A program made the position numbers and the translations under genes. From Candidatus Levyibacteriota bacterium (lineage in GTDB: Bacteria > Patescibacteriota > Microgenomatia > Levybacterales > UBA12049), in NCBI GenBank assembly GCA_016182235.1, contig JACOXT010000003.1, forward strand, positions 2,209-66,208: a DNA stretch of 64,000 nt, written 5' to 3'. Under the pieces are notes generated by a model, which was not told the DNA's origin, did not search any database, and saw nothing but the letters and a program-made list of their open reading frames with translations. Of the stretch, positions 11,644 through 19,851 are shown one piece after another. The first letter of the stretch is position 1; the number at the start of each line of letters is the position of its first letter.

Positions 11644-13011
11644 TTATTCTAAGTTGCTACATGCGATCTTTATCCCTTCGCTAAATGTTGGATACGCGTG
11701 AATCATCCTTGCAAGCGTTTCGGCTTTTACTCTTAGATTGATAGCTAAAGCAAGCTCATGGATCATCTCACCACCCCTCGGAGCAACAATTGATGCGCCA
11801 ATGATAACTCCTTTTTTATCAGTAATTACTTTCACAAATCCATCGAACTCTTCAGAGGTATTAGCACGTCCCAATATTGAGATTGCCGCAAGCCCCTTTT
11901 TAATTTTGATTCCCTTTTCTTTGGCCTGCGTTTCTGATAATCCAATAGAGGCAACTTCAGGAGTTATAAAAACACATCTTGGGATAGCCTTATAATCAAC
12001 TGAGATTTTATTGCGTGAGAAAGCGTTATGGGAAGCGATATAGCTTTGATATTCTCCAGAGTGAGTAAAAAGATATGGCCCAACTACGTCTCCTGCAGCA
12101 AAAATATTAGATGAGGTTGTTTGTAAATATTTATTTACTAGAATTCCAGAATGGTTAATTCGAACTTTCGCCTTTTCAAGACCAAGATCAAGATTAGGAG
12201 TTTTGCCTGTTGCGACAAGAATTTCTTTAACTTCGGTTGATTCATGCTTTCCTCCATAAACATAAGAGACAATTTTTTTACCATTGACTTTTTCAACTCT
12301 ATCCACAGTAACACCATTTAATACTGTTATTTTTCTATTTTCAAATAGAGCTTGCACCAGTTCAATTACCTCTTTATCCTCATTTGACAAAATGGTAGAT
12401 CTTGTTGCTATCGTCACTTTTGTTCCAAAAATTGAGAAAATTTGTGCAAATTCACATGCTACTGGCCCTCCGCCTATAATAAAAAGTGATTCCGGAGGTT
12501 TTTTTAAGTCTGAAGCTTCTTTAAAAGTAATATATTCTGATTCTTGAAGACCAATAATCTTTGGAATAAAGACTGAAGATCCTGATGCAATGATAAATTT
12601 GCGAGAACTAAAGCGTATTCCGATAGATTCAATTTCATAAGGAGAGACAAAAGTGGCCTTATGGGGAACTACATGGATTCCGTTTTTTTCAAAAACTTCT
12701 TTTCCATGCGCTGCACCGGTTCTTGAAACAACCAGATTTTTTCTCTTATGAATTTGTTCAAAGTCTACGGATAAATTTTTTACATTGATGCCAAAAGCTT
12801 GTGCGTTTTTTATAGTTTCAAGAATTTCTCCTGATTGTAAAAGCGCTTTTGTTGGAACGCAGGCAAAATTTGGACATTCTCCGCCAATTACTCCTTTTTC
12901 AAAAATTGCAACCTTTTTGCCAATTCGGGCGGCATAATGTGCCCCAACGCTTCCTCCGGCACCTGAACCAATAACAATAAGGTCGTAATCATGTTTTTTA
13001 AGTCTTAACAT
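11644..13011 (-). CDS. Class I FAD-dependent pyridine nucleotide-disulfide oxidoreductase (dihydrolipoamide dehydrogenase/glutathione reductase-like)
   Basis: It has the GxGxxG motif DLIVIGSGAGG, the redox-active disulfide GGECPNFACVPTK, and the C-terminal interface motif HAYPTFSEG. Confidence 0.8.
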   Translation of the reverse strand: MLRLKKHDYDLIVIGSGAGGSVGAHYAARIGKKVAIFEKGVIGGECPNFACVPTKALLQSGEILETIKNAQAFGINVKNLSVDFEQIHKRKNLVVSRTGAAHGKEVFEKNGIHVVPHKATFVSPYEIESIGIRFSSRKFIIASGSSVFIPKIIGLQESEYITFKEASDLKKPPESLFIIGGGPVACEFAQIFSIFGTKVTIATRSTILSNEDKEVIELVQALFENRKITVLNGVTVDRVEKVNGKKIVSYVYGGKHESTEVKEILVATGKTPNLDLGLEKAKVRINHSGILVNKYLQTTSSNIFAAGDVVGPYLFTHSGEYQSYIASHNAFSRNKISVDYKAIPRCVFITPEVASIGLSETQAKEKGIKIKKGLAAISILGRANTSEEFDGFVKVITDKKGVIIGASIVAPRGGEMIHELALAINLRVKAETLARMIHAYPTFSEGIKIACSNLE

Positions 13012-13017
13012 TTTTCA

Positions 13018-13722
13018 TTAACCGAAATTTATCGTCCCATTTGCTATAAGAATCAAAAGCCAGCCAAGACCAATCAACATGAGTCCAATCATCAGACGCA
13101 TATAGCCTTTGCTTCCTTCTTTCCAATTTTGTATTGCGCTTATTTTTGTTCCTCCTGCGACAAGGAATAAAATAACAACTAATGGAAGTACAAAAATTAT
13201 ATTGTATAGAATTAGAAGGAGGAAGGCCGCGAAATTAAAATTTAACGAAAGAACAGTGATGATTGCCAAGTAAGGTGCTCCGGTACAGGGTAATTCAACT
13301 CCTGCAATGAACGCTCCCAAAAATATAACTCCTGGAATTGTTAGGTTTTTAGAAAACTTGTGAATCTTATTTGAGAAATATGAGGGTATTTGAAGAGAAA
13401 AACCTTTTCCATACCAGTAAAAATCTTTTATCTCAAGAAGGCCAGCCAGAATGATAATGCCTCCAACAACAAGAGCCAAATATTCTGCGACAAATAATGG
13501 TATACTTGCTAAGAAATAAATTAGCCCGAGACCTGCCAATAAATATGTGAGAAAAATAGCAAATATATATAATCCTCCCAAAGTCAAAAGTCTTCTTACC
13601 GATCCTTTGCCTCCCATTACAACAGATACCATAAGAATCAAAACTCCTATTGCGCAAGGATTTATCGAGTCAATTGCGGCAGATATGACAACTAACGATA
13701 GCGTTGGCAACTCAATTCCCAT
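13018..13722 (-). CDS. CcdA/DsbD-family thiol-disulfide transporter-like membrane protein
   Basis: 234 aa with about 6 TM helices and two membrane-embedded Cys motifs (DSINPCAIG and ELPCTGAPY). Confidence 0.6.
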   Translation of the reverse strand: MGIELPTLSLVVISAAIDSINPCAIGVLILMVSVVMGGKGSVRRLLTLGGLYIFAIFLTYLLAGLGLIYFLASIPLFVAEYLALVVGGIIILAGLLEIKDFYWYGKGFSLQIPSYFSNKIHKFSKNLTIPGVIFLGAFIAGVELPCTGAPYLAIITVLSLNFNFAAFLLLILYNIIFVLPLVVILFLVAGGTKISAIQNWKEGSKGYMRLMIGLMLIGLGWLLILIANGTINFG

Positions 13723-14458
13723 ATTTTAGTCCTCTTATTTTTCCTAAAGCTTCCTGGACCTTAAAGCTTCTGCAAAGTTTGTCGGTTTTGTTTTTAAACT
13801 CACCGAATTCAATAATAATACAGTCTCCTGGTGGTACATTTGTATGGGGAGAAATGACGTAGTTTGCCGGATCATCAATTTTCTCTTGATAAAAAATTCC
13901 GTTTTGAGTTTTGTATACAAAAACCTGAAGCTGTCCTATGGCTCCATTTTGGCACATATAGTTGGATTTTAATGTAAGGGGTCCATTGTGAGTTCGAATA
14001 GATAATGAATTTGGAGTTATATAACCTCCTAATTCCTCGAAAAAATTGCCAAGGCTTGCGCTAAGATTGTCCACAACAACCCCCTCAAGATGAATTCTGG
14101 AGTCATTATGTTCATGAAGGGTAGATGTACCAACTTTATTTTCTAAACCTTCCGGATCTTCAAGTTCAATTTCTTCTCCGCAATTCCAAATTTCAAAATC
14201 AGCATGGTAATGAACAGGACCCTTACTCAAAGATACGGTATTGAGATAAATAGTGGAACCCATCAAAAATAATGTTACAGAAATTACAATTGCTACAATA
14301 GAAAAGAATAAGATTTTTTTAAGAGAATTGGACAATTTTTTGCTTGCCAAAGAAATAAATACAAGAATTAGCAATAAAATCGAGCCATAAATTGTGACTT
14401 GTATGGAATAGGAAGAAATTATTGTGTCAATTTGCATAACTATATCCACTATATGCAA
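13712..14458 (-). CDS. Membrane-anchored exported protein with paired His motifs
   Basis: N-terminal TM helices are followed by HYHADFEIWNCGEEIEL...TLHEHNDSRIHLEG. Function is unknown. It is tightly packed between the ATPase and CcdA-like genes. Confidence 0.5.
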   Translation of the reverse strand: MHIVDIVMQIDTIISSYSIQVTIYGSILLLILVFISLASKKLSNSLKKILFFSIVAIVISVTLFLMGSTIYLNTVSLSKGPVHYHADFEIWNCGEEIELEDPEGLENKVGTSTLHEHNDSRIHLEGVVVDNLSASLGNFFEELGGYITPNSLSIRTHNGPLTLKSNYMCQNGAIGQLQVFVYKTQNGIFYQEKIDDPANYVISPHTNVPPGDCIIIEFGEFKNKTDKLCRSFKVQEALGKIRGLKYGN

Positions 14459-14461
14459 TTT

Positions 14462-17161
14462 TTATGTTTGGGGCAAGTGGTATTTGTACGTTAAACTTAG
14501 AAGCCTTAAGATTGACTTAAATACGATCCACAATACGAAACACGATAAGATAATATATATAGACTCAAATAATCTTAAATTTTCTATCTTAAAAAGATTG
14601 GAGACAAAGGGGACATAGGCAATTAAAGCTTGAATAGCAACCGTTACAAAAACAGCAAGAACAAGCCACACATTTGAAAAAAAAGAAGTTTTGAAGCGTG
14701 AGCGAATGATATAAAGCATAATAAGCTCAAGCATAACTATTGCTGTAAACGCTGAAGCCCGAGCTTGAGAGGTCCCCTCATTAATGCTTATCGAAAATAT
14801 TCCAAGTACGGCTATAGTCATAAGCAGTCCGTATATGAACATCTCTGCCAAGAGTTTTTTATTAATGATTTTTCCTTGAAATAATTTTGGAGAATGATTT
14901 AAAATTCCCTTTTCGGGAGGATCAAGTCCCAAGGCAACTGCCGGCAGCCCGTCTGTAACCACATTTATCCACAAAAGCATAGTTGCGGTCAAGGGAAGTT
15001 TTTGGAAAATCATTAACCCGATAAAAACTACCAAAACTTCTCCGATATTACATGAAAGAAGATAATTTACGAATTTAGAAATATTTTGAAATATTCCGCG
15101 TCCTTCCTCAATCGCAGAGACGATTGTTGAGAAATGATCATCCAAAAGAACCATGTCTGAGGCTTCTTTCGCGACATCAGTTCCAGAGATTCCCATTGCA
15201 ATTCCAATATCTGCTCTTTTTAGAGCGGGAGCATCATTTACTCCGTCTCCAGTCATGGCAACAATATGGCCTTTTTTCTTAAGCGCATCAACTATTCTCA
15301 TTTTTACGCTAGGATTTACCCGTGCATAAATACTTATATTCTCAACTTTATCTTCAAATTCCTGATCAGTCATTTTGTCTAAGTCGTCTCCAGTTAGAGT
15401 ACTGCCTGTAATTCCAACGTCTTTCGCAACTGCTTGTGCTGTCAGACTATGATCGCCAGTAATCATAATCACACGAATACCAGAATTATCCAGATTCTCG
15501 ATAAGGCTTTTTACTTCTGCTCTCGGAGGGTCAATCATGCCCTGGATTCCAACAAATGTGAGGTCTTTCTCAAGATTTTTTTCATCTTTCAATTGTTCTT
15601 TATACTCCGCTTCAGTCAGTTTTTTATATCCAAATCCAAGGCTCCTTAAGGCTTTGGAGGACATCTCTTCATTGATTTTCAGGATATTTTTTCTATCCTC
15701 CCTTGTAATCGTTGGTTCTTTTTCTTTTTTTAATACATAAGAACACTTTGCTAAGATAATTTCCGGGGCGCCTTTTGTGTAGATAAGATAAGTTTCTCTA
15801 TCTCTTAGAACTATAGACATAAGTTTTCTTTCACTCGTGAATGGAATTTCGTGTACACGGTCTAGATTGGTATTGACTTCTCCTTTTTTTGCACTCACAA
15901 GAAGGGCTATTTCCGTAGGGTCTCCTATTTTATTTTCAGAAGACAAAGAAGCGTTGTTGCACAAAAGGCCAATTTCAAGAAGGAGTTTAAATATGTTCGG
16001 ATTGACCTTTTTATTCCTCAAGCTAAATTCCCCAGAAGTTTCGTATCCAACGCCAGAAACCTCGTAATTTAGGCCATCATAATAAATATTGCGAACTGTC
16101 ATCTCCCCGCGAGTTAAAGTGCCTGTTTTATCAGAGCAAATAATATCAGTTGAGCCAAGAGTCTCGACAGAGTTTAGCTTTCTAATAAGCGCATTTTTTT
16201 TAAGCATTCTTTGTGTGCCAAAAGCTAAAGAAATAGTTACAACCGCTGCCAATCCTTCAGGGACTGCAGCAACAGCCAAAGCAACGGAGGCTATAAAAGA
16301 GTGTATAATCCGCTGAGTAAGAGACAGTGTATTAAAGTCTTTGGCAAGAAACACAATAAAGACAAAAACAAGAAGACATATTCCTAAAATAATATATCCA
16401 ATCATTTTTCCAACCTCATCTAATCTTTTTTGGATTGGTGTTTGGTCCTCTTTTGTCTCGGAGACATCCCTCGCGATCTTGCCGATTATTGTTTGGTTTC
16501 CTGTTGTTATTACAATTCCCATTCCGCGTCCTGAGGCAACCGAAGTACCAGAGAAGACCATATTTTTCTGATCAGCGATTTGTTTGTTTCCTGTTAAAAC
16601 ATTTACTTCTTTTCCAACAGGATTGGATTCTCCGGTAAGAGGCGCTTCGTTTACTCTTAAGCTAAATGCTTTAATTATCCTTATATCTCCCGGTATTTTT
16701 GCTCCTTCTTCAAGAACCACAATATCTCCCGGAACAAGATATTTTACGTCTATTTCCTGTGTTTTACCTTGTCTTACCACTTTTGTTTTATATGCAAGAA
16801 TTTTTTTAAGTGCTTCTATTGCCTTTTCCGCCTTGAACTCCTGGACAAATCCCAAAATAGTCGTCATCAAAATAATTGCAAGTATTAATCCTGCCTCGAT
16901 AAGATTTGAGGCATCACGATCTCCAAGAAAATAAATAAAAAAAATTAGGAAAGTTGCGGCAAGAAGAATAATGGTTAAAGTGTTCTTGAATTGTTTTAAA
17001 TAGAGGGAAATAAGTGATGCTTTTTTTGGAGGCTTAAGTTGATTTAACCCGTACTCTTTAAGTCGTTTTTCTGCCTCATCATTTGACAATCCAGATTCAG
17101 TCGTGTTAAGTTTTTCTAAAATGCTTTCTATCGGTTGAGAATAAGGGTTTTGTAACTGCAT
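14462..17161 (-). CDS. P-type cation-transporting ATPase (P2/Ca2+-ATPase-like)
   Basis: Motifs LTGES, ICSDKTGTLT, PEGLAAVVTISLA, MITGDH and MTGDGVNDAPALK are present. 899 aa. Confidence 0.9.
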   Translation of the reverse strand: MQLQNPYSQPIESILEKLNTTESGLSNDEAEKRLKEYGLNQLKPPKKASLISLYLKQFKNTLTIILLAATFLIFFIYFLGDRDASNLIEAGLILAIILMTTILGFVQEFKAEKAIEALKKILAYKTKVVRQGKTQEIDVKYLVPGDIVVLEEGAKIPGDIRIIKAFSLRVNEAPLTGESNPVGKEVNVLTGNKQIADQKNMVFSGTSVASGRGMGIVITTGNQTIIGKIARDVSETKEDQTPIQKRLDEVGKMIGYIILGICLLVFVFIVFLAKDFNTLSLTQRIIHSFIASVALAVAAVPEGLAAVVTISLAFGTQRMLKKNALIRKLNSVETLGSTDIICSDKTGTLTRGEMTVRNIYYDGLNYEVSGVGYETSGEFSLRNKKVNPNIFKLLLEIGLLCNNASLSSENKIGDPTEIALLVSAKKGEVNTNLDRVHEIPFTSERKLMSIVLRDRETYLIYTKGAPEIILAKCSYVLKKEKEPTITREDRKNILKINEEMSSKALRSLGFGYKKLTEAEYKEQLKDEKNLEKDLTFVGIQGMIDPPRAEVKSLIENLDNSGIRVIMITGDHSLTAQAVAKDVGITGSTLTGDDLDKMTDQEFEDKVENISIYARVNPSVKMRIVDALKKKGHIVAMTGDGVNDAPALKRADIGIAMGISGTDVAKEASDMVLLDDHFSTIVSAIEEGRGIFQNISKFVNYLLSCNIGEVLVVFIGLMIFQKLPLTATMLLWINVVTDGLPAVALGLDPPEKGILNHSPKLFQGKIINKKLLAEMFIYGLLMTIAVLGIFSISINEGTSQARASAFTAIVMLELIMLYIIRSRFKTSFFSNVWLVLAVFVTVAIQALIAYVPFVSNLFKIENLRLFESIYIILSCFVLWIVFKSILRLLSLTYKYHLPQT

Positions 17162-17189
17162 AATTTAACTATACGTAAAACGCTTAACC

Positions 17190-17219
17190 TTGACAAGCAG
17201 TTTTATAGCATGTTACTAT
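17190..17219 (+). promoter_or_regulatory. Sigma70-type promoter (TTGACA-N18-TGtTACTAT)
   Basis: ttgaca at 17190-17195 and tgt-tactat at 17211-17219, with the ATG at 17230. Confidence 0.45.
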
Positions 17220-17229
17220 CCGAAACATT

Positions 17230-17904
17230 ATGACAATGGAGTATTTGAAAGGAGAATTGTTAAAAACTGGTAACCCGAGTGATTCAGAATATGCAAAGGG
17301 GATTGCTGATATGCTTAGATCAAGAGGTGCAGATATTCCTTTACCTTCAGAATTTCGTCAATTTACAGATCGAGAAAAAGAATCTTTAAAAAACGATGGA
17401 GCAATTATTTATGAATTAAATGGAGAAACAATTTTAGATCAAATGAATAAAGGAAGATTATTTGGGTATGTAGCGCGTGGAGGAAATAGATTGCTAAGGG
17501 TACCATCATTGAGAACTCAGGTGGCTATTTATCTTGATCCAGAAAAATTCTTTATATCAAATAGCAATAAAGAGTTATTGGCTCAGGAAAAATTAGCTGA
17601 GAGGGATAGTCAAGAATTAAGAGATAAATTGGGTTTTGATAGTTTAACTGTAATTATTCCAAATCAAGCATCTACTCTTACAGAATTAGCTTTTAAACAT
17701 TTAGATGAAACAGGAGTTTGGTTATTTGGGAGAGGCTATAGTTATCTTTATGGTAGAACTAACAATCCAGTAAATGAAACTGGATCTAATGTTGCTCATG
17801 TTGGCAACTCCAACCCTAGTAATGGTATCAGCATCGGTTACTGGCCGAGTCGCAATGGCAGTCGCTGGGTTTACGTTGTTCGACTAATTGTGGCAATAAG
17901 ATAG
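17230..17904 (+). CDS. Hypothetical protein
   Basis: 224-aa ORF downstream of a consensus promoter. No family recognised. Confidence 0.45.
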   Translation: MTMEYLKGELLKTGNPSDSEYAKGIADMLRSRGADIPLPSEFRQFTDREKESLKNDGAIIYELNGETILDQMNKGRLFGYVARGGNRLLRVPSLRTQVAIYLDPEKFFISNSNKELLAQEKLAERDSQELRDKLGFDSLTVIIPNQASTLTELAFKHLDETGVWLFGRGYSYLYGRTNNPVNETGSNVAHVGNSNPSNGISIGYWPSRNGSRWVYVVRLIVAIR

Positions 17905-18084: not shown

Positions 18085-18648
18085 TTACGCCTTAAATATG
18101 ATTACTGAGGCGATGGAGAAGTAAATAAGAAGACTAATTAGGTCTTGAATTGCAGTTGTAAAGGGCCCGGAACCAACCGCCGGATCTTTGTGTTCTTTCT
18201 GGAGAATTGTTGGCATAATAAGAGATACCGCTGGTGCAATGGCCATACTTATGAACATAGCAAGTCCTACAGTGAGAGAAATAGGAAAAGATTTAAACCA
18301 AATTAGAGCAAAAACTCCTAAGCATATTCCAAATATTAGACCGAGAAACAATCCCAATAGCAGTTCCTTAAAGAGATATTTTACAAAGCTAATTCTCTCC
18401 TTTCCTAAATTTCTAATATATACTTCTTCTGTTTGGTGTCCTACGGCATCAGCCATATAGACAATAACAGGAATAAAGTACGCGAGATCTAAATTTTGTA
18501 ATAGCACTTTTTCAAACTGAGAAGCGAAAATGGCGGCAATCATTCCTCCTGTTAATCCGACAAAAAGCCATGGGACTCTATGTCTAATCAAGAGCGAAAC
18601 ACGTTCTTTGGCGTCATCTTCTAATTGCGAAGACTGAAGTGTTGCCAT
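18085..18648 (-). CDS. MgtE-family divalent cation transporter, TM domain only
   Basis: PVIVYMADAVGHQTE and GSGPFTTAIQDLISLLIYF are MgtE membrane-domain motifs. At 187 aa there is no room for the N-terminal or CBS domains. Confidence 0.6.
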   Translation of the reverse strand: MATLQSSQLEDDAKERVSLLIRHRVPWLFVGLTGGMIAAIFASQFEKVLLQNLDLAYFIPVIVYMADAVGHQTEEVYIRNLGKERISFVKYLFKELLLGLFLGLIFGICLGVFALIWFKSFPISLTVGLAMFISMAIAPAVSLIMPTILQKEHKDPAVGSGPFTTAIQDLISLLIYFSIASVIIFKA

Positions 18649-19312
18649 ATAAGTTTATATTTATCATATCAGATTTTTTATTTTGCCTTAACATCTTTTT
18701 TATTGGCGCATAGGATTTACGGTGGATTGGGGAGATTCCATGTTTTTTTAATGCTTCTTGATGCGCTTTAGTTCCATAGCCAACATTTTTGGAAAAATAA
18801 TAATATGGGTATTTTCTCGCAAGTTTTTTCATGATTCTATCTCTTGTAACTTTAGCCAAAACCGATGCGGCAGAGATTGAATAGTGAAATAATCCTCCTT
18901 TTTTAATTCTTCTTGATTTATATTTATAAAGTCTTAGAGTTTTTCCTCCATCGACCAAAACAAGTGAAATATCTATTCCGAAATTTGCTTTTAAATTTTC
19001 CAAAGACAAAAACATTGCTTTTCGAACTCCTTTTTGGATTCCAAGAACATCAATATCTCTTTCGCTAACAATTCCTATGCCATATCCAGAAGATTTTTTG
19101 CAAATCTTATGATAGGCTTTCTCTCTTTGACTTTTAGTCATTTTTTTACTATCCCGAACGCCGGCAACTATCTGATTTTCCGAGTGGATAACAACAGAGG
19201 CAGCAGTTACAGGACCGGCCCACGGGCCGCGTCCTGCTTCGTCAACGCCCGCGATATTTTTAAACCCTTTTTCCCAAAGCGATTTTTCCAAAAATAATGT
19301 AGGAGTGATCAT
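18614..19312 (-). CDS. rnhB: Ribonuclease HII
   Basis: GVDEAGRGPWAGPV and the SAASVLAK context are present. Typical length. Confidence 0.85.
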   Translation of the reverse strand: MITPTLFLEKSLWEKGFKNIAGVDEAGRGPWAGPVTAASVVIHSENQIVAGVRDSKKMTKSQREKAYHKICKKSSGYGIGIVSERDIDVLGIQKGVRKAMFLSLENLKANFGIDISLVLVDGGKTLRLYKYKSRRIKKGGLFHYSISAASVLAKVTRDRIMKKLARKYPYYYFSKNVGYGTKAHQEALKKHGISPIHRKSYAPIKKMLRQNKKSDMININLYGNTSVFAIRR

Positions 19313-19851
19313 GTAACATCGTTCTTAAATTCTTTTAAAAGTTTTTGAATTTTTGGATTTATTACTATTTGGCAATAGGCAGATGTTTGATTTTTTTCAT
19401 AGAAACTTTGATGGTATTCTTCCGCTTTGTAGAAGGTCGAAAAAGGGAGTATCTCCGTTACGATTTTTGAATTGAATTTTGCGGATTTCTCTAATTTTTC
19501 CTTAGACTCTTCGGCTGATTGTTTCTGCTTTGCAGAATGGTAAAAAATTATAGATCTATATTGCGTTCCAATATCTGCCCCTTGGCGATTAAGTGTTGTT
19601 GGGTCATGCGTTGCGAAGAATACGTCAAGAATTTTCTCATAGGAAATAATAGAAGGATCAAATTTTATTTGAATAGATTCAGCATGTCCCGTTGTACCCA
19701 TCGAAACTTGATCATAAGACGGATTGGAATTTTCTCCTCCCGTACCTCCTGCGTAGCCGGACATAACAGATACAACGCCTTTTAATCTTTTAAATATCGC
19801 CTCCGTGCACCAAAAGCAACCCCCTCCTAAAGTCGCAGTTTCAAGATTCAT
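19309..19851 (-). CDS. msrA: Peptide-methionine (S)-S-oxide reductase
   Basis: GGGCFWCTEA active site and the HDPT..NRQG.D.G.QYRS motif. Confidence 0.9.
   Translation of the reverse strand: MNLETATLGGGCFWCTEAIFKRLKGVVSVMSGYAGGTGGENSNPSYDQVSMGTTGHAESIQIKFDPSIISYEKILDVFFATHDPTTLNRQGADIGTQYRSIIFYHSAKQKQSAEESKEKLEKSAKFNSKIVTEILPFSTFYKAEEYHQSFYEKNQTSAYCQIVINPKIQKLLKEFKNDVT

Follow-up and report, generated by a model that had tools for sequence, protein, structure and literature searches.

A putative His/Cys surface protein and a CcdA-like membrane protein form the conserved core of a gene module in CPR bacteria and DPANN archaea

Within a 64,000-nucleotide (nt) stretch of the genome of a Candidatus Levyibacteriota bacterium (contig JACOXT010000003.1; hereafter "the window"), we examined four minus-strand genes encoding a P-type cation ATPase, a putative surface protein with invariant histidines and cysteines (the His/Cys protein), a CcdA-like membrane protein, and a flavoprotein of the disulfide oxidoreductase class. 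The source genome amounts to 809 kb in five contigs and is 83.6% complete, with the window located within a 600-kb contig, and the region was detected in four groundwater metagenome runs, all of them DNA runs from one study, with no RNA run listed for it. The four open reading frames (ORFs) lie at 14462–17161 (pump, 899 aa), 13712–14458 (His/Cys protein), 13018–13722 (CcdA-like protein, 234 aa), and 11644–13011 (flavoprotein, 455 aa). Both these coordinates and the spacings reported in the initial annotation, i.e., 3 nt, an 11-nt overlap, and 6 nt, were reproduced when the His/Cys protein was taken to start at the TTG at position 14458 (248 aa). Its most likely start is instead the ATG at position 14437 (13712–14437, 241 aa), since this length matches the sequence collection's own gene call and homologues begin with M-Q-[IL]-D; the spacings then become 24 nt, an 11-nt overlap, and 6 nt. 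A site scan found no terminator-like sites between the four genes, while a consensus scan identified a promoter-like site on the same strand (TTGTCA-17-TATAGT, 17168–17196, 10 of 12 consensus matches) a few bases upstream of the ATPase start, within the 68-nt gap to a divergent gene at 17230. The promoter-like site is suggestive only.

To place this locus in a broader context, an alignment of the His/Cys protein was used to locate 323 places in species-representative genomes, the best 80 of which were analysed. All 80 loci were labelled as candidate phyla radiation (CPR) bacteria or DPANN archaea, bar some implausible "Gammaproteobacteria" or "Methanosarcinales" labels of metagenome-assembled genomes. 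Many public assemblies labelled "uncultured Gammaproteobacteria", "Lysobacterales", or "Methanosarcinales" carry the module (e.g., loci L009, L010, L012, L044, and L053), and these labels look like taxonomy errors because the gene content is typical of Levybacteria or Woesearchaeota. The His/Cys and CcdA-like genes were adjacent and co-directional in 75 of the 80 loci, the other five being unresolved at contig ends. Among the 75 resolved loci, the gap was 30 nt or less in 65, and the two genes overlapped in 49, typically by the same 11 nt as in the window, an arrangement that is far from chance. The pair is translationally coupled and constitutes the invariant core of the module. The neighbourhood whose conservation across CPR genomes the initial annotation had proposed to check is thus conserved, also with respect to the pump: of 39 bacterial loci, 36 encode it no more than three genes from the pair, 22 as a directly adjacent gene on the same strand and 11 as an adjacent gene in divergent orientation.

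A flavoprotein orthologue followed the pair in 25 of the 39 bacterial loci and in a single one of 22 archaeal-labelled loci, and abutted the CcdA-like gene (−77 to +9 nt) in five loci, as it does in the window. Archaeal-labelled loci almost never included a pump or flavoprotein, and often featured CorA and a Na+/H+ exchanger instead. Overall, the core pair occurred without such a flavoprotein in 35 of 61 assessable loci, and the flavoprotein is a lineage-restricted add-on to the module. Another companion was a stand-alone ATP-cone gene (PF03477, ~90 aa), which followed the pair in 47 of the 80 loci. No ATP-cone orthologue was found in the whole 83.6%-complete assembly of the window's genome, and only 6 nt separate the CcdA-like and flavoprotein genes. 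The window locus is a variant of the CPR/DPANN module without the ATP-cone gene, and this cone-less, flavoprotein-bearing form was seen in nine of the 61 assessable loci.

Across genomes of the same class, CcdA-like orthologues (≥72% identity) were detected in no more than four of the 150 other genomes sampled, and all five genomes of the same family lacked them, so that the module looks like an accessory, horizontally shared gene set. Flavoprotein orthologues (≥58% identity) were similarly restricted: in 151 sampled class genomes, they were found only in G149, beside the module, and in G058, beside a pump. In the latter, 12 nt separate an orthologous pump gene from the orthologous flavoprotein gene behind it, with no His/CcdA pair in between (L088:4466-8545 = G058:C1:62465-66544). 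This adjacency ties the flavoprotein to the neighbourhood, not demonstrably to the CcdA-like protein, and it may be linked as much to the pump as to CcdA. A 33%-identical paralogue from the unpublished genome G068 bears on none of our conclusions. In Daviesbacteria-type loci (L031:2996-4542, L068:2832-4286, and similar), a TrxB/AhpF-like reductase of ~330 aa, scoring below the TrxB cut-off, lies next to the pump and module and is followed by a 185-aa membrane protein and a conserved 71-aa peptide with two transmembrane (TM) helices, the first two being fused into a 484-aa protein in L068. We considered this gene as a parallel reductase and rejected it: its neighbours are cysteine-free small membrane proteins and the reductase gene is missing in L036, which indicates a loose linkage.

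We next examined each component individually, starting with the two-cysteine membrane protein, which is predicted to have six TM helices. A single-sequence Pfam scan yielded no DsbD_TM match for this protein and assigned it instead to SfLAP (PF11139; 39.8 bits against a cut-off of 35, profile positions 1–208 of 213). The SfLAP/GAP name derives from mycobacterial glycolipid-addressing proteins and is uninformative on function here. When the family was compared with a DsbD_TM alignment built from 15 genuine DsbD_TM sequences of related genomes, hhalign returned a probability of 96.1% (E 2.9e-9, 199 columns), with C23 (NPC) and C146 (ELPCTGAPY) falling on both CcdA cysteines. These two residues, one in TM1 and one in TM4 and each preceded by a proline, were invariant in sets of 40 and 76 aligned sequences. 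The acidic residues D18 and E143, located just before them, are also invariant. A PDB profile search with the alignment returned nothing; in Foldseek, the structure model (pLDDT 75, helical segments throughout) had CcdA itself (5vkv) as its top, albeit weak, match (E 0.075, probability 0.85, 23% identity, TM-score 0.34). Profile–profile comparison hence upholds the CcdA/DsbD-like assignment of the initial annotation and makes this membrane protein a true CcdA homologue.

Orthologues of the CcdA-like protein (59–89% identical) range from Levybacteria to Woesearchaeota, i.e., across CPR and DPANN, and more distant relatives are found in thiol-redox settings. A 40–43%-identical paralogue adjoins a VKOR–thioredoxin fusion in all three loci examined, and a 30–35%-identical paralogue is fused to Redoxin and Glutaredoxin domains. 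Neighbours of the protein in the Atlas include SfLAP, DsbD_TM, and DsbD_2, with some clusters carrying glutaredoxin or thioredoxin domains. The three VKOR-associated loci (L035:1631-3193, L074:2224-3752, and L089:7152-8715) pair oxidising and reducing membrane thiol components, and in L074 a DoxX-family gene comes next.

Its partner, the His/Cys protein, matched no Pfam or NCBIfam family and corresponded to no named family in the Atlas. Homologues were nonetheless numerous, with more than 523 matches at 90% clustering, and clustering at 50% identity left 537 clusters, of which 168 had E-values under 1e-30. The AlphaFold model (pLDDT 94) consists of a TM hairpin (residues 3–31 and 37–68) followed by a beta-rich domain. 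The two helices are joined by a Lys-rich (KK-rich) loop and some homologues carry an extra signal peptide, which points to an extracytoplasmic N-terminus, a cytoplasmic interhelix loop, and an extracellular beta domain. The exported His-motif protein of the initial annotation is accordingly predicted to be membrane-anchored and extracytoplasmic, with an invariant cluster of histidines accompanied by cysteines. Structure searches offered little guidance as to its fold: Foldseek against the PDB gave no match at E 0.001 or better, a further wide search gave matches that fell on the helical hairpin and not on the ectodomain, and a PDB profile search with the family alignment returned nothing. The best fold match of the ectodomain was a weak one to 3u7z, a "putative metal binding protein" (Z 6.3), next to another weak, beta-grasp-like match to the transcobalamin beta domain (Z ~5.5).

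Residue conservation was more informative. Invariant positions comprise H76, H78, D80, C86, H108, H110, D112, R114, H116, E118, C162, D205, C206, and C222, and the four cysteines behaved as two separate pairs across 133 representatives of the family. C206 and C222 are lost jointly in one sub-clade, and probably represent a dispensable, structural pair. C86 and C162 are co-conserved with H76, H78, H108, H110, H116, D112, and E118, which marks them as part of the putative functional site. Longer homologues (400–485 aa) were considered as potential fusions of the His domain with CcdA and set aside, as they matched no Pfam family and the one compared (P0180) was unlike the CcdA-like protein. Shorter His-domain paralogues also occur near the module in DPANN loci (L040:9834-10418, L054:10845-11492, L046:1025-1477, and L078:14351-14974). 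These display HWH...HTHD..H.E motifs without the C206/C222 pair, one has an N-terminal C2H2-like zinc-finger motif, and no Pfam family was found for them.

Complex prediction from our own alignments lends weak support to a physical interaction between the two core proteins. The pair reached an ipSAE of 0.54, compared to 0.00 for the best control, with at least 89% of contacts in common between three runs and a partner pLDDT of at least 78. In the benchmark for this score, 58 of 80 solved complexes and two of 110 mismatched pairs passed; among the passing pairs, only seven of the 80 solved complexes and both mismatches had an ipSAE of 0.60 or less.

The flavoprotein at 11644–13011 is a class I pyridine-nucleotide disulfide oxidoreductase (Pfam Pyr_redox_2 and Pyr_redox_dim) that remained under the cut-off of every NCBIfam model obtained, including PRK06370.1-3 (379.5 bits), the lipoamide dehydrogenase (Lpd) model TIGR01350 (374.3 vs. 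408.8), and the mercuric reductase (MerA) model TIGR02053 (368.5 vs. 454.45). The CPNFAC and HAYPTFSE motifs on which an Lpd- or glutathione reductase-type assignment had initially been based are both present, the former within a redox motif GGECPN[FWY]AC that is conserved among orthologues. The latter motif is not Lpd- or glutathione reductase-like, however, as its Y440 aligns with the catalytic His of Lpd (1ebd, 2eq6) and with a Tyr of MerA (5x1y), and orthologues have Tyr or Phe at this acid–base position. MerA 5x1y was also the top solved match (256 bits). The second MerA Tyr is missing, being aligned by our count with G103, and the protein ends in ...KIACSNLE, i.e., with a single cysteine and without the MerA Cys-Cys tail. 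Of 29 full-length orthologues, 27 keep this C451, five residues from the end. Searches at ≥58% identity gave more than 120 clusters, all from uncultured organisms and with automatic names ranging from "E3 component" to "mercuric reductase". The flavoprotein is neither a lipoamide dehydrogenase nor a MerA, and belongs to an uncharacterised clade between the two.

The initial annotation had expected this genome to lack 2-oxoacid dehydrogenase partners, and no match to the lipoyl domain (PF00364), the E2 core (PF00198), or GcvH (PF01597) was found in the 83.6%-complete genome, an incomplete assembly in which absence is not proof, while control genomes were positive for all three. A role of the flavoprotein as an E3 is therefore very unlikely on this sequence evidence. 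Loss of synteny in relatives and an E3-requiring complex elsewhere in the genome had been named at the outset as observations that would speak against the proposal; the neighbourhood proved to be conserved and an E3 partner was not found. The suggested bypass of thioredoxin fared less well. Neither TrxB nor thioredoxin was identified in the 83.6%-complete assembly, which may be an assembly gap: TrxB is present in five of five same-family genomes, and both TrxB and thioredoxin are present in five of five relatives bearing the module or the flavoprotein. A replacement of a missing TrxB by the flavoprotein, which would require complementary distributions, is rejected, and with TrxB in all ten relatives tested the bypass receives no support. 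Elsewhere in the genome, a gap of 243 nt separates the gene for a mycoredoxin/NrdH-like glutaredoxin (99 aa, WCPDC) from a downstream one for a class I reductase of 443 aa, in which the His-Glu dyad is retained and whose best matches are Lpd- and mycothione reductase-type models (L007:14778-16651 = G000:C4:189777-191650). Since TrxB and thioredoxin were not found, these two proteins may form the general disulfide-reducing system of this genome, the alternative being that the thioredoxin genes lie in the missing ~16%.

The pump (14462–17161) includes E1-E2_ATPase, Cation_ATPase_N/C, and Hydrolase domains in Pfam. Its best NCBIfam models scored below their cut-offs (PMR1-type, 674.7 vs. 798.3 bits; SERCA-type, 660.7 vs. 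703.4 bits), while a lower-scoring PMCA-type model was just over its own (516.6 vs. 507.05 bits). The nearest solved chain was the Listeria Ca2+-ATPase LMCA1 (6zhf; 613 bits, full-length alignment). Besides DKTGT, TGDGVNDAP, and PEGL in TM4, the pump displays a Glu in TM5 (NIGE), a Thr-Asp in TM6 (NVVTD), and a Glu in TM8 (MLELI), and in the alignment with the window pump LMCA1 has lost the TM5 Glu, TM6 Thr, and TM8 Glu. These TM4, TM5, TM6, and TM8 residues correspond to what we take to be the ligands of SERCA sites I and II (SERCA1a numbering), which suggests two SERCA-like ion sites. We thus infer from its sequence that the pump is of the Ca2+ type, possibly Ca2+/Mn2+; the Ca2+/metal-type pump of the initial annotation, for which a check of the TM ion-site residues had been proposed, appears to be P2A/SERCA-like in these residues.

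Upstream of the pump, the window encodes a 187-aa protein consisting of an MgtE transmembrane domain only (18085–18648, minus strand; Pfam MgtE 6.9e-26), the match of which spans only positions 270–447 of 450 in TIGR00400. Short genes for this membrane domain neighbour the pump in 16 related loci. In the window, the two are separated by a plus-strand ORF of no family (17230–17904, 224 aa), which may be an insertion as the MgtE-like and pump genes are adjacent and co-directional in related loci. RNase HII (18614–19312) and MsrA (19309–19851) are encoded on the minus strand, co-directional and with overlapping ends, just upstream of the MgtE-like gene; MsrA is a further thiol-dependent repair enzyme near the module.

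Taken together, these results confirm the observation reported in the initial annotation and partly support its interpretation. The reading we favour, and for which we consider the case evenly balanced, is that of a transmembrane thiol relay running from the CcdA homologue to the C86/C162–His site of the surface protein, to which a private flavoprotein and a Ca2+-type pump have been attached in this lineage. The CcdA-like protein would move reducing equivalents from the cytoplasm across the membrane by thiol–disulfide exchange and hand them to Cys86/Cys162 of its His/Cys partner, which in their reduced form would keep the surface metal site reduced and fit to bind or process metal. The flavoprotein might then act as an extra, module-specific feeder driven by NAD(P)H, possibly with C451 as an interchange thiol, or as a reductase for the module's substrate, while the pump would move Ca2+-type divalent cations for the same surface process. 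We count in favour of this relay the synteny of the pair, the CcdA homology, the thiol-redox contexts of paralogues, the predicted topology of the partner, the co-conservation of C86/C162 with the histidines, the weak support from complex prediction, the evidence that the flavoprotein is not an E3, and the link to the flavoprotein. The last point bears on the dedicated path from NAD(P)H through flavoprotein to CcdA put forward initially, which stands in so far as flavoprotein orthologues occur almost only in the module neighbourhood, and is weakened by their presence in only 25 of 39 bacterial loci and beside a pump without the pair in G058.

Several points weigh against such a relay. The His/Cys partner has neither a thioredoxin fold nor a CxxC motif, unlike known CcdA clients, and in the flavoprotein the His that disulfide reductases use for catalysis is absent, the site being MerA-like. 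A special feeder is not obviously needed, given that flavoprotein-bearing relatives retain TrxB and thioredoxin. G058 has the pump and flavoprotein adjacent without the pair, and two flavoprotein orthologues lack C451. Finally, D18/E143 and the cation transporters that consistently neighbour the module (P-ATPase, MgtE, CorA, and Na+/H+ exchanger) would suit metal transport equally well. A bolder version, in which reductant export is independent of thioredoxin, seems improbable to us: here the C-terminal Cys of the flavoprotein would reduce the CcdA-type protein directly, the surface His/Cys centre would be an extracellular metal- or oxidant-reducing enzyme, the pump would supply or balance the metal, and the system would have been exchanged between ultra-small bacteria and archaea.

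The main alternative to a thiol relay is an inward metal route similar to that of mercury resistance systems, in which the surface protein would capture a thiophilic or redox-active metal, the CcdA-like cysteines together with D18/E143 would pass the ion in, the flavoprotein would reduce it with NADPH, and the pump would balance cations. This alternative gains from a second locus of the same genome, ~113 kb past the window end (L007:4406-10218 = G000:C4:179405-185217), which encodes two ArsR-type regulators, an exported thioredoxin, a DUF3179 protein, a TlpA/AhpC-like protein (WCPTC), a canonical CcdA (220 aa), a Cys-rich 173-aa membrane protein (CASC, CESC), and MerA. The latter is genuine by its score (L007:8818-10218; TIGR02053, 514.4 bits vs. 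454.45), ends in LSCCV, has no N-terminal metal-binding domain, and comes directly after the canonical CcdA, the TlpA-like protein, and the Cys-rich membrane protein. By gene content, this reads as an actinobacterial-style mercury resistance locus in a CPR genome. Actinobacterial-type mercury resistance operons encode MerA and an ArsR-type regulator along with "mercury transporter" proteins that have CcdA or TrxA domains (PMC12195606, Table 4; PMC5312570), and actinomycete proteins with either domain appear as mercury transporters in a review table (PMC12195606, Table 4). A CcdA-family protein beside a MerA-type enzyme hence follows a known pattern of inward metal movement, which keeps this alternative alive. 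It is further consistent with MerA 5x1y as the top solved match of the flavoprotein, with the alignment of Tyr440 to the MerA Tyr and not the Lpd His, with cation transporters as neighbours throughout, and with the pump and flavoprotein kept together without the pair in G058. We nevertheless regard it as unlikely, because the flavoprotein lacks the C-terminal Cys pair and the second Tyr of MerA and scores below the MerA cut-off, the core pair occurs without flavoprotein in over half of the loci that could be assessed, CcdA-like paralogues are found in plain thiol-redox contexts, and the pump appears to be of the Ca2+ type and not a soft-metal P1B ATPase.

Alternatively, these genes may simply travel together as an accessory cation and envelope island and act independently of each other, the flavoprotein serving as a disulfide or oxidant reductase of general use in the cytoplasm and the pump exporting Ca2+ in the ordinary way. 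The patchy spread of CcdA-like orthologues in the class (four of 150 other genomes, none of five in the same family) fits such an island, as do the variable orientation of the pump relative to the pair (22 co-directional vs. 11 divergent), the near-complete lack of pump and flavoprotein in archaeal-labelled loci, and the retention of only these two genes in G058. Independent action is nonetheless distinctly doubtful in view of the tight organisation in the window (spacings of at most 24 nt, two genes that overlap by 11 nt, a single promoter-like site, and no terminator-like site between the genes), of flavoprotein orthologues found almost only by the module or a pump, and of a pump that, rearrangements notwithstanding, remains no more than three genes away from the pair in 36 of the 39 bacterial loci. 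The proposition that the flavoprotein is an ordinary dihydrolipoamide dehydrogenase of a 2-oxoacid dehydrogenase or glycine-cleavage system elsewhere in the genome, as the automatic "E3 component" names and the 374-bit Lpd score might suggest, is close to refuted by the Lpd cut-off of 408.8, the Tyr or Phe in place of the catalytic His, and the lack of lipoyl, E2 core, and GcvH matches in the 83.6%-complete genome, where control genomes were positive for all three.

Redox enzymes are very few in CPR bacteria and DPANN archaea, which live attached to other cells. If the thiol relay holds true, this strongly conserved and horizontally shared module of the membrane would count among the small number of dedicated envelope chemistries known from such organisms, linking a CcdA-type thiol carrier and a calcium-type pump to a private flavoprotein and to a new family of metal-binding proteins at the cell surface. 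It would widen the clients of CcdA/DsbD beyond thioredoxin-fold proteins, and would account for the orphan "E3" and "mercuric reductase" annotations in genomes without lipoate-dependent complexes. The 537 clusters (50% identity) of the His/Cys family correspond to no Pfam family, no solved chain matched the family by sequence or Foldseek, and our literature search found no paper describing the module.

Each component nevertheless has counterparts in known systems. The pump resembles LMCA1 and SERCA in aligning with LMCA1 over its full length and sharing DKTGT, TGDGVNDAP, and the TM4 PEGL, and differs from LMCA1 in keeping the acidic or polar TM5, TM6, and TM8 residues replaced there, and from both in its genomic tie to a thiol–metal module. 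The flavoprotein has the architecture of MerA and of high-Mr thioredoxin reductases, with two dinucleotide folds and a dimerisation domain, a CxxxxC disulfide by the FAD, and a Cys near the C-terminus. It departs from them in a tail with a single Cys (IAC followed by three to four residues to the end) rather than Cys-Cys or Cys-Sec, in its GGECPN[FWY]AC redox motif, in having Tyr or Phe for the catalytic His, and in belonging to a clade without a characterised member. At the level of the locus, the likeness to actinobacterial mer operons lies in the joint presence of a CcdA-family membrane protein, an exported partner, and a MerA-related flavoprotein, and a true copy of that operon type exists elsewhere in the same genome. 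The window differs in that its flavoprotein has no C-terminal Cys pair and falls below the MerA cut-off, its exported partner is not thioredoxin-like, a Ca2+-type pump is added, and the core pair is widespread without any flavoprotein.

The DsbD/CcdA superfamily takes electrons from cytoplasmic thioredoxin and passes them to an extracytoplasmic thioredoxin-fold acceptor. Its known thiol–disulfide electron transporters, CcdA, DsbD, and ScsB, include CcdA acting with ResA/StoA in Bacillus, and CcdA structures are available (5VKV, PMC5805637, PMC7871232). The window protein shares with these systems a homologous membrane domain with its TM1 and TM4 cysteines inside P-C motifs, the pairing of its gene with that of an extracytoplasmic membrane-anchored partner, and paralogues linked to thioredoxin-fold proteins. 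It differs in falling into Pfam SfLAP and not DsbD_TM, in the invariant Asp and Glu before its cysteines, and in a genome context in which the link to cytochrome c maturation was not seen. Its partner is likewise different: the place of a thioredoxin-like protein is taken by a His/Cys beta-domain protein that belongs to no known family. Finally, the usual CPR/DPANN module adds an ATP-cone protein to the pair, and in the window a class I flavoprotein is encoded next door.

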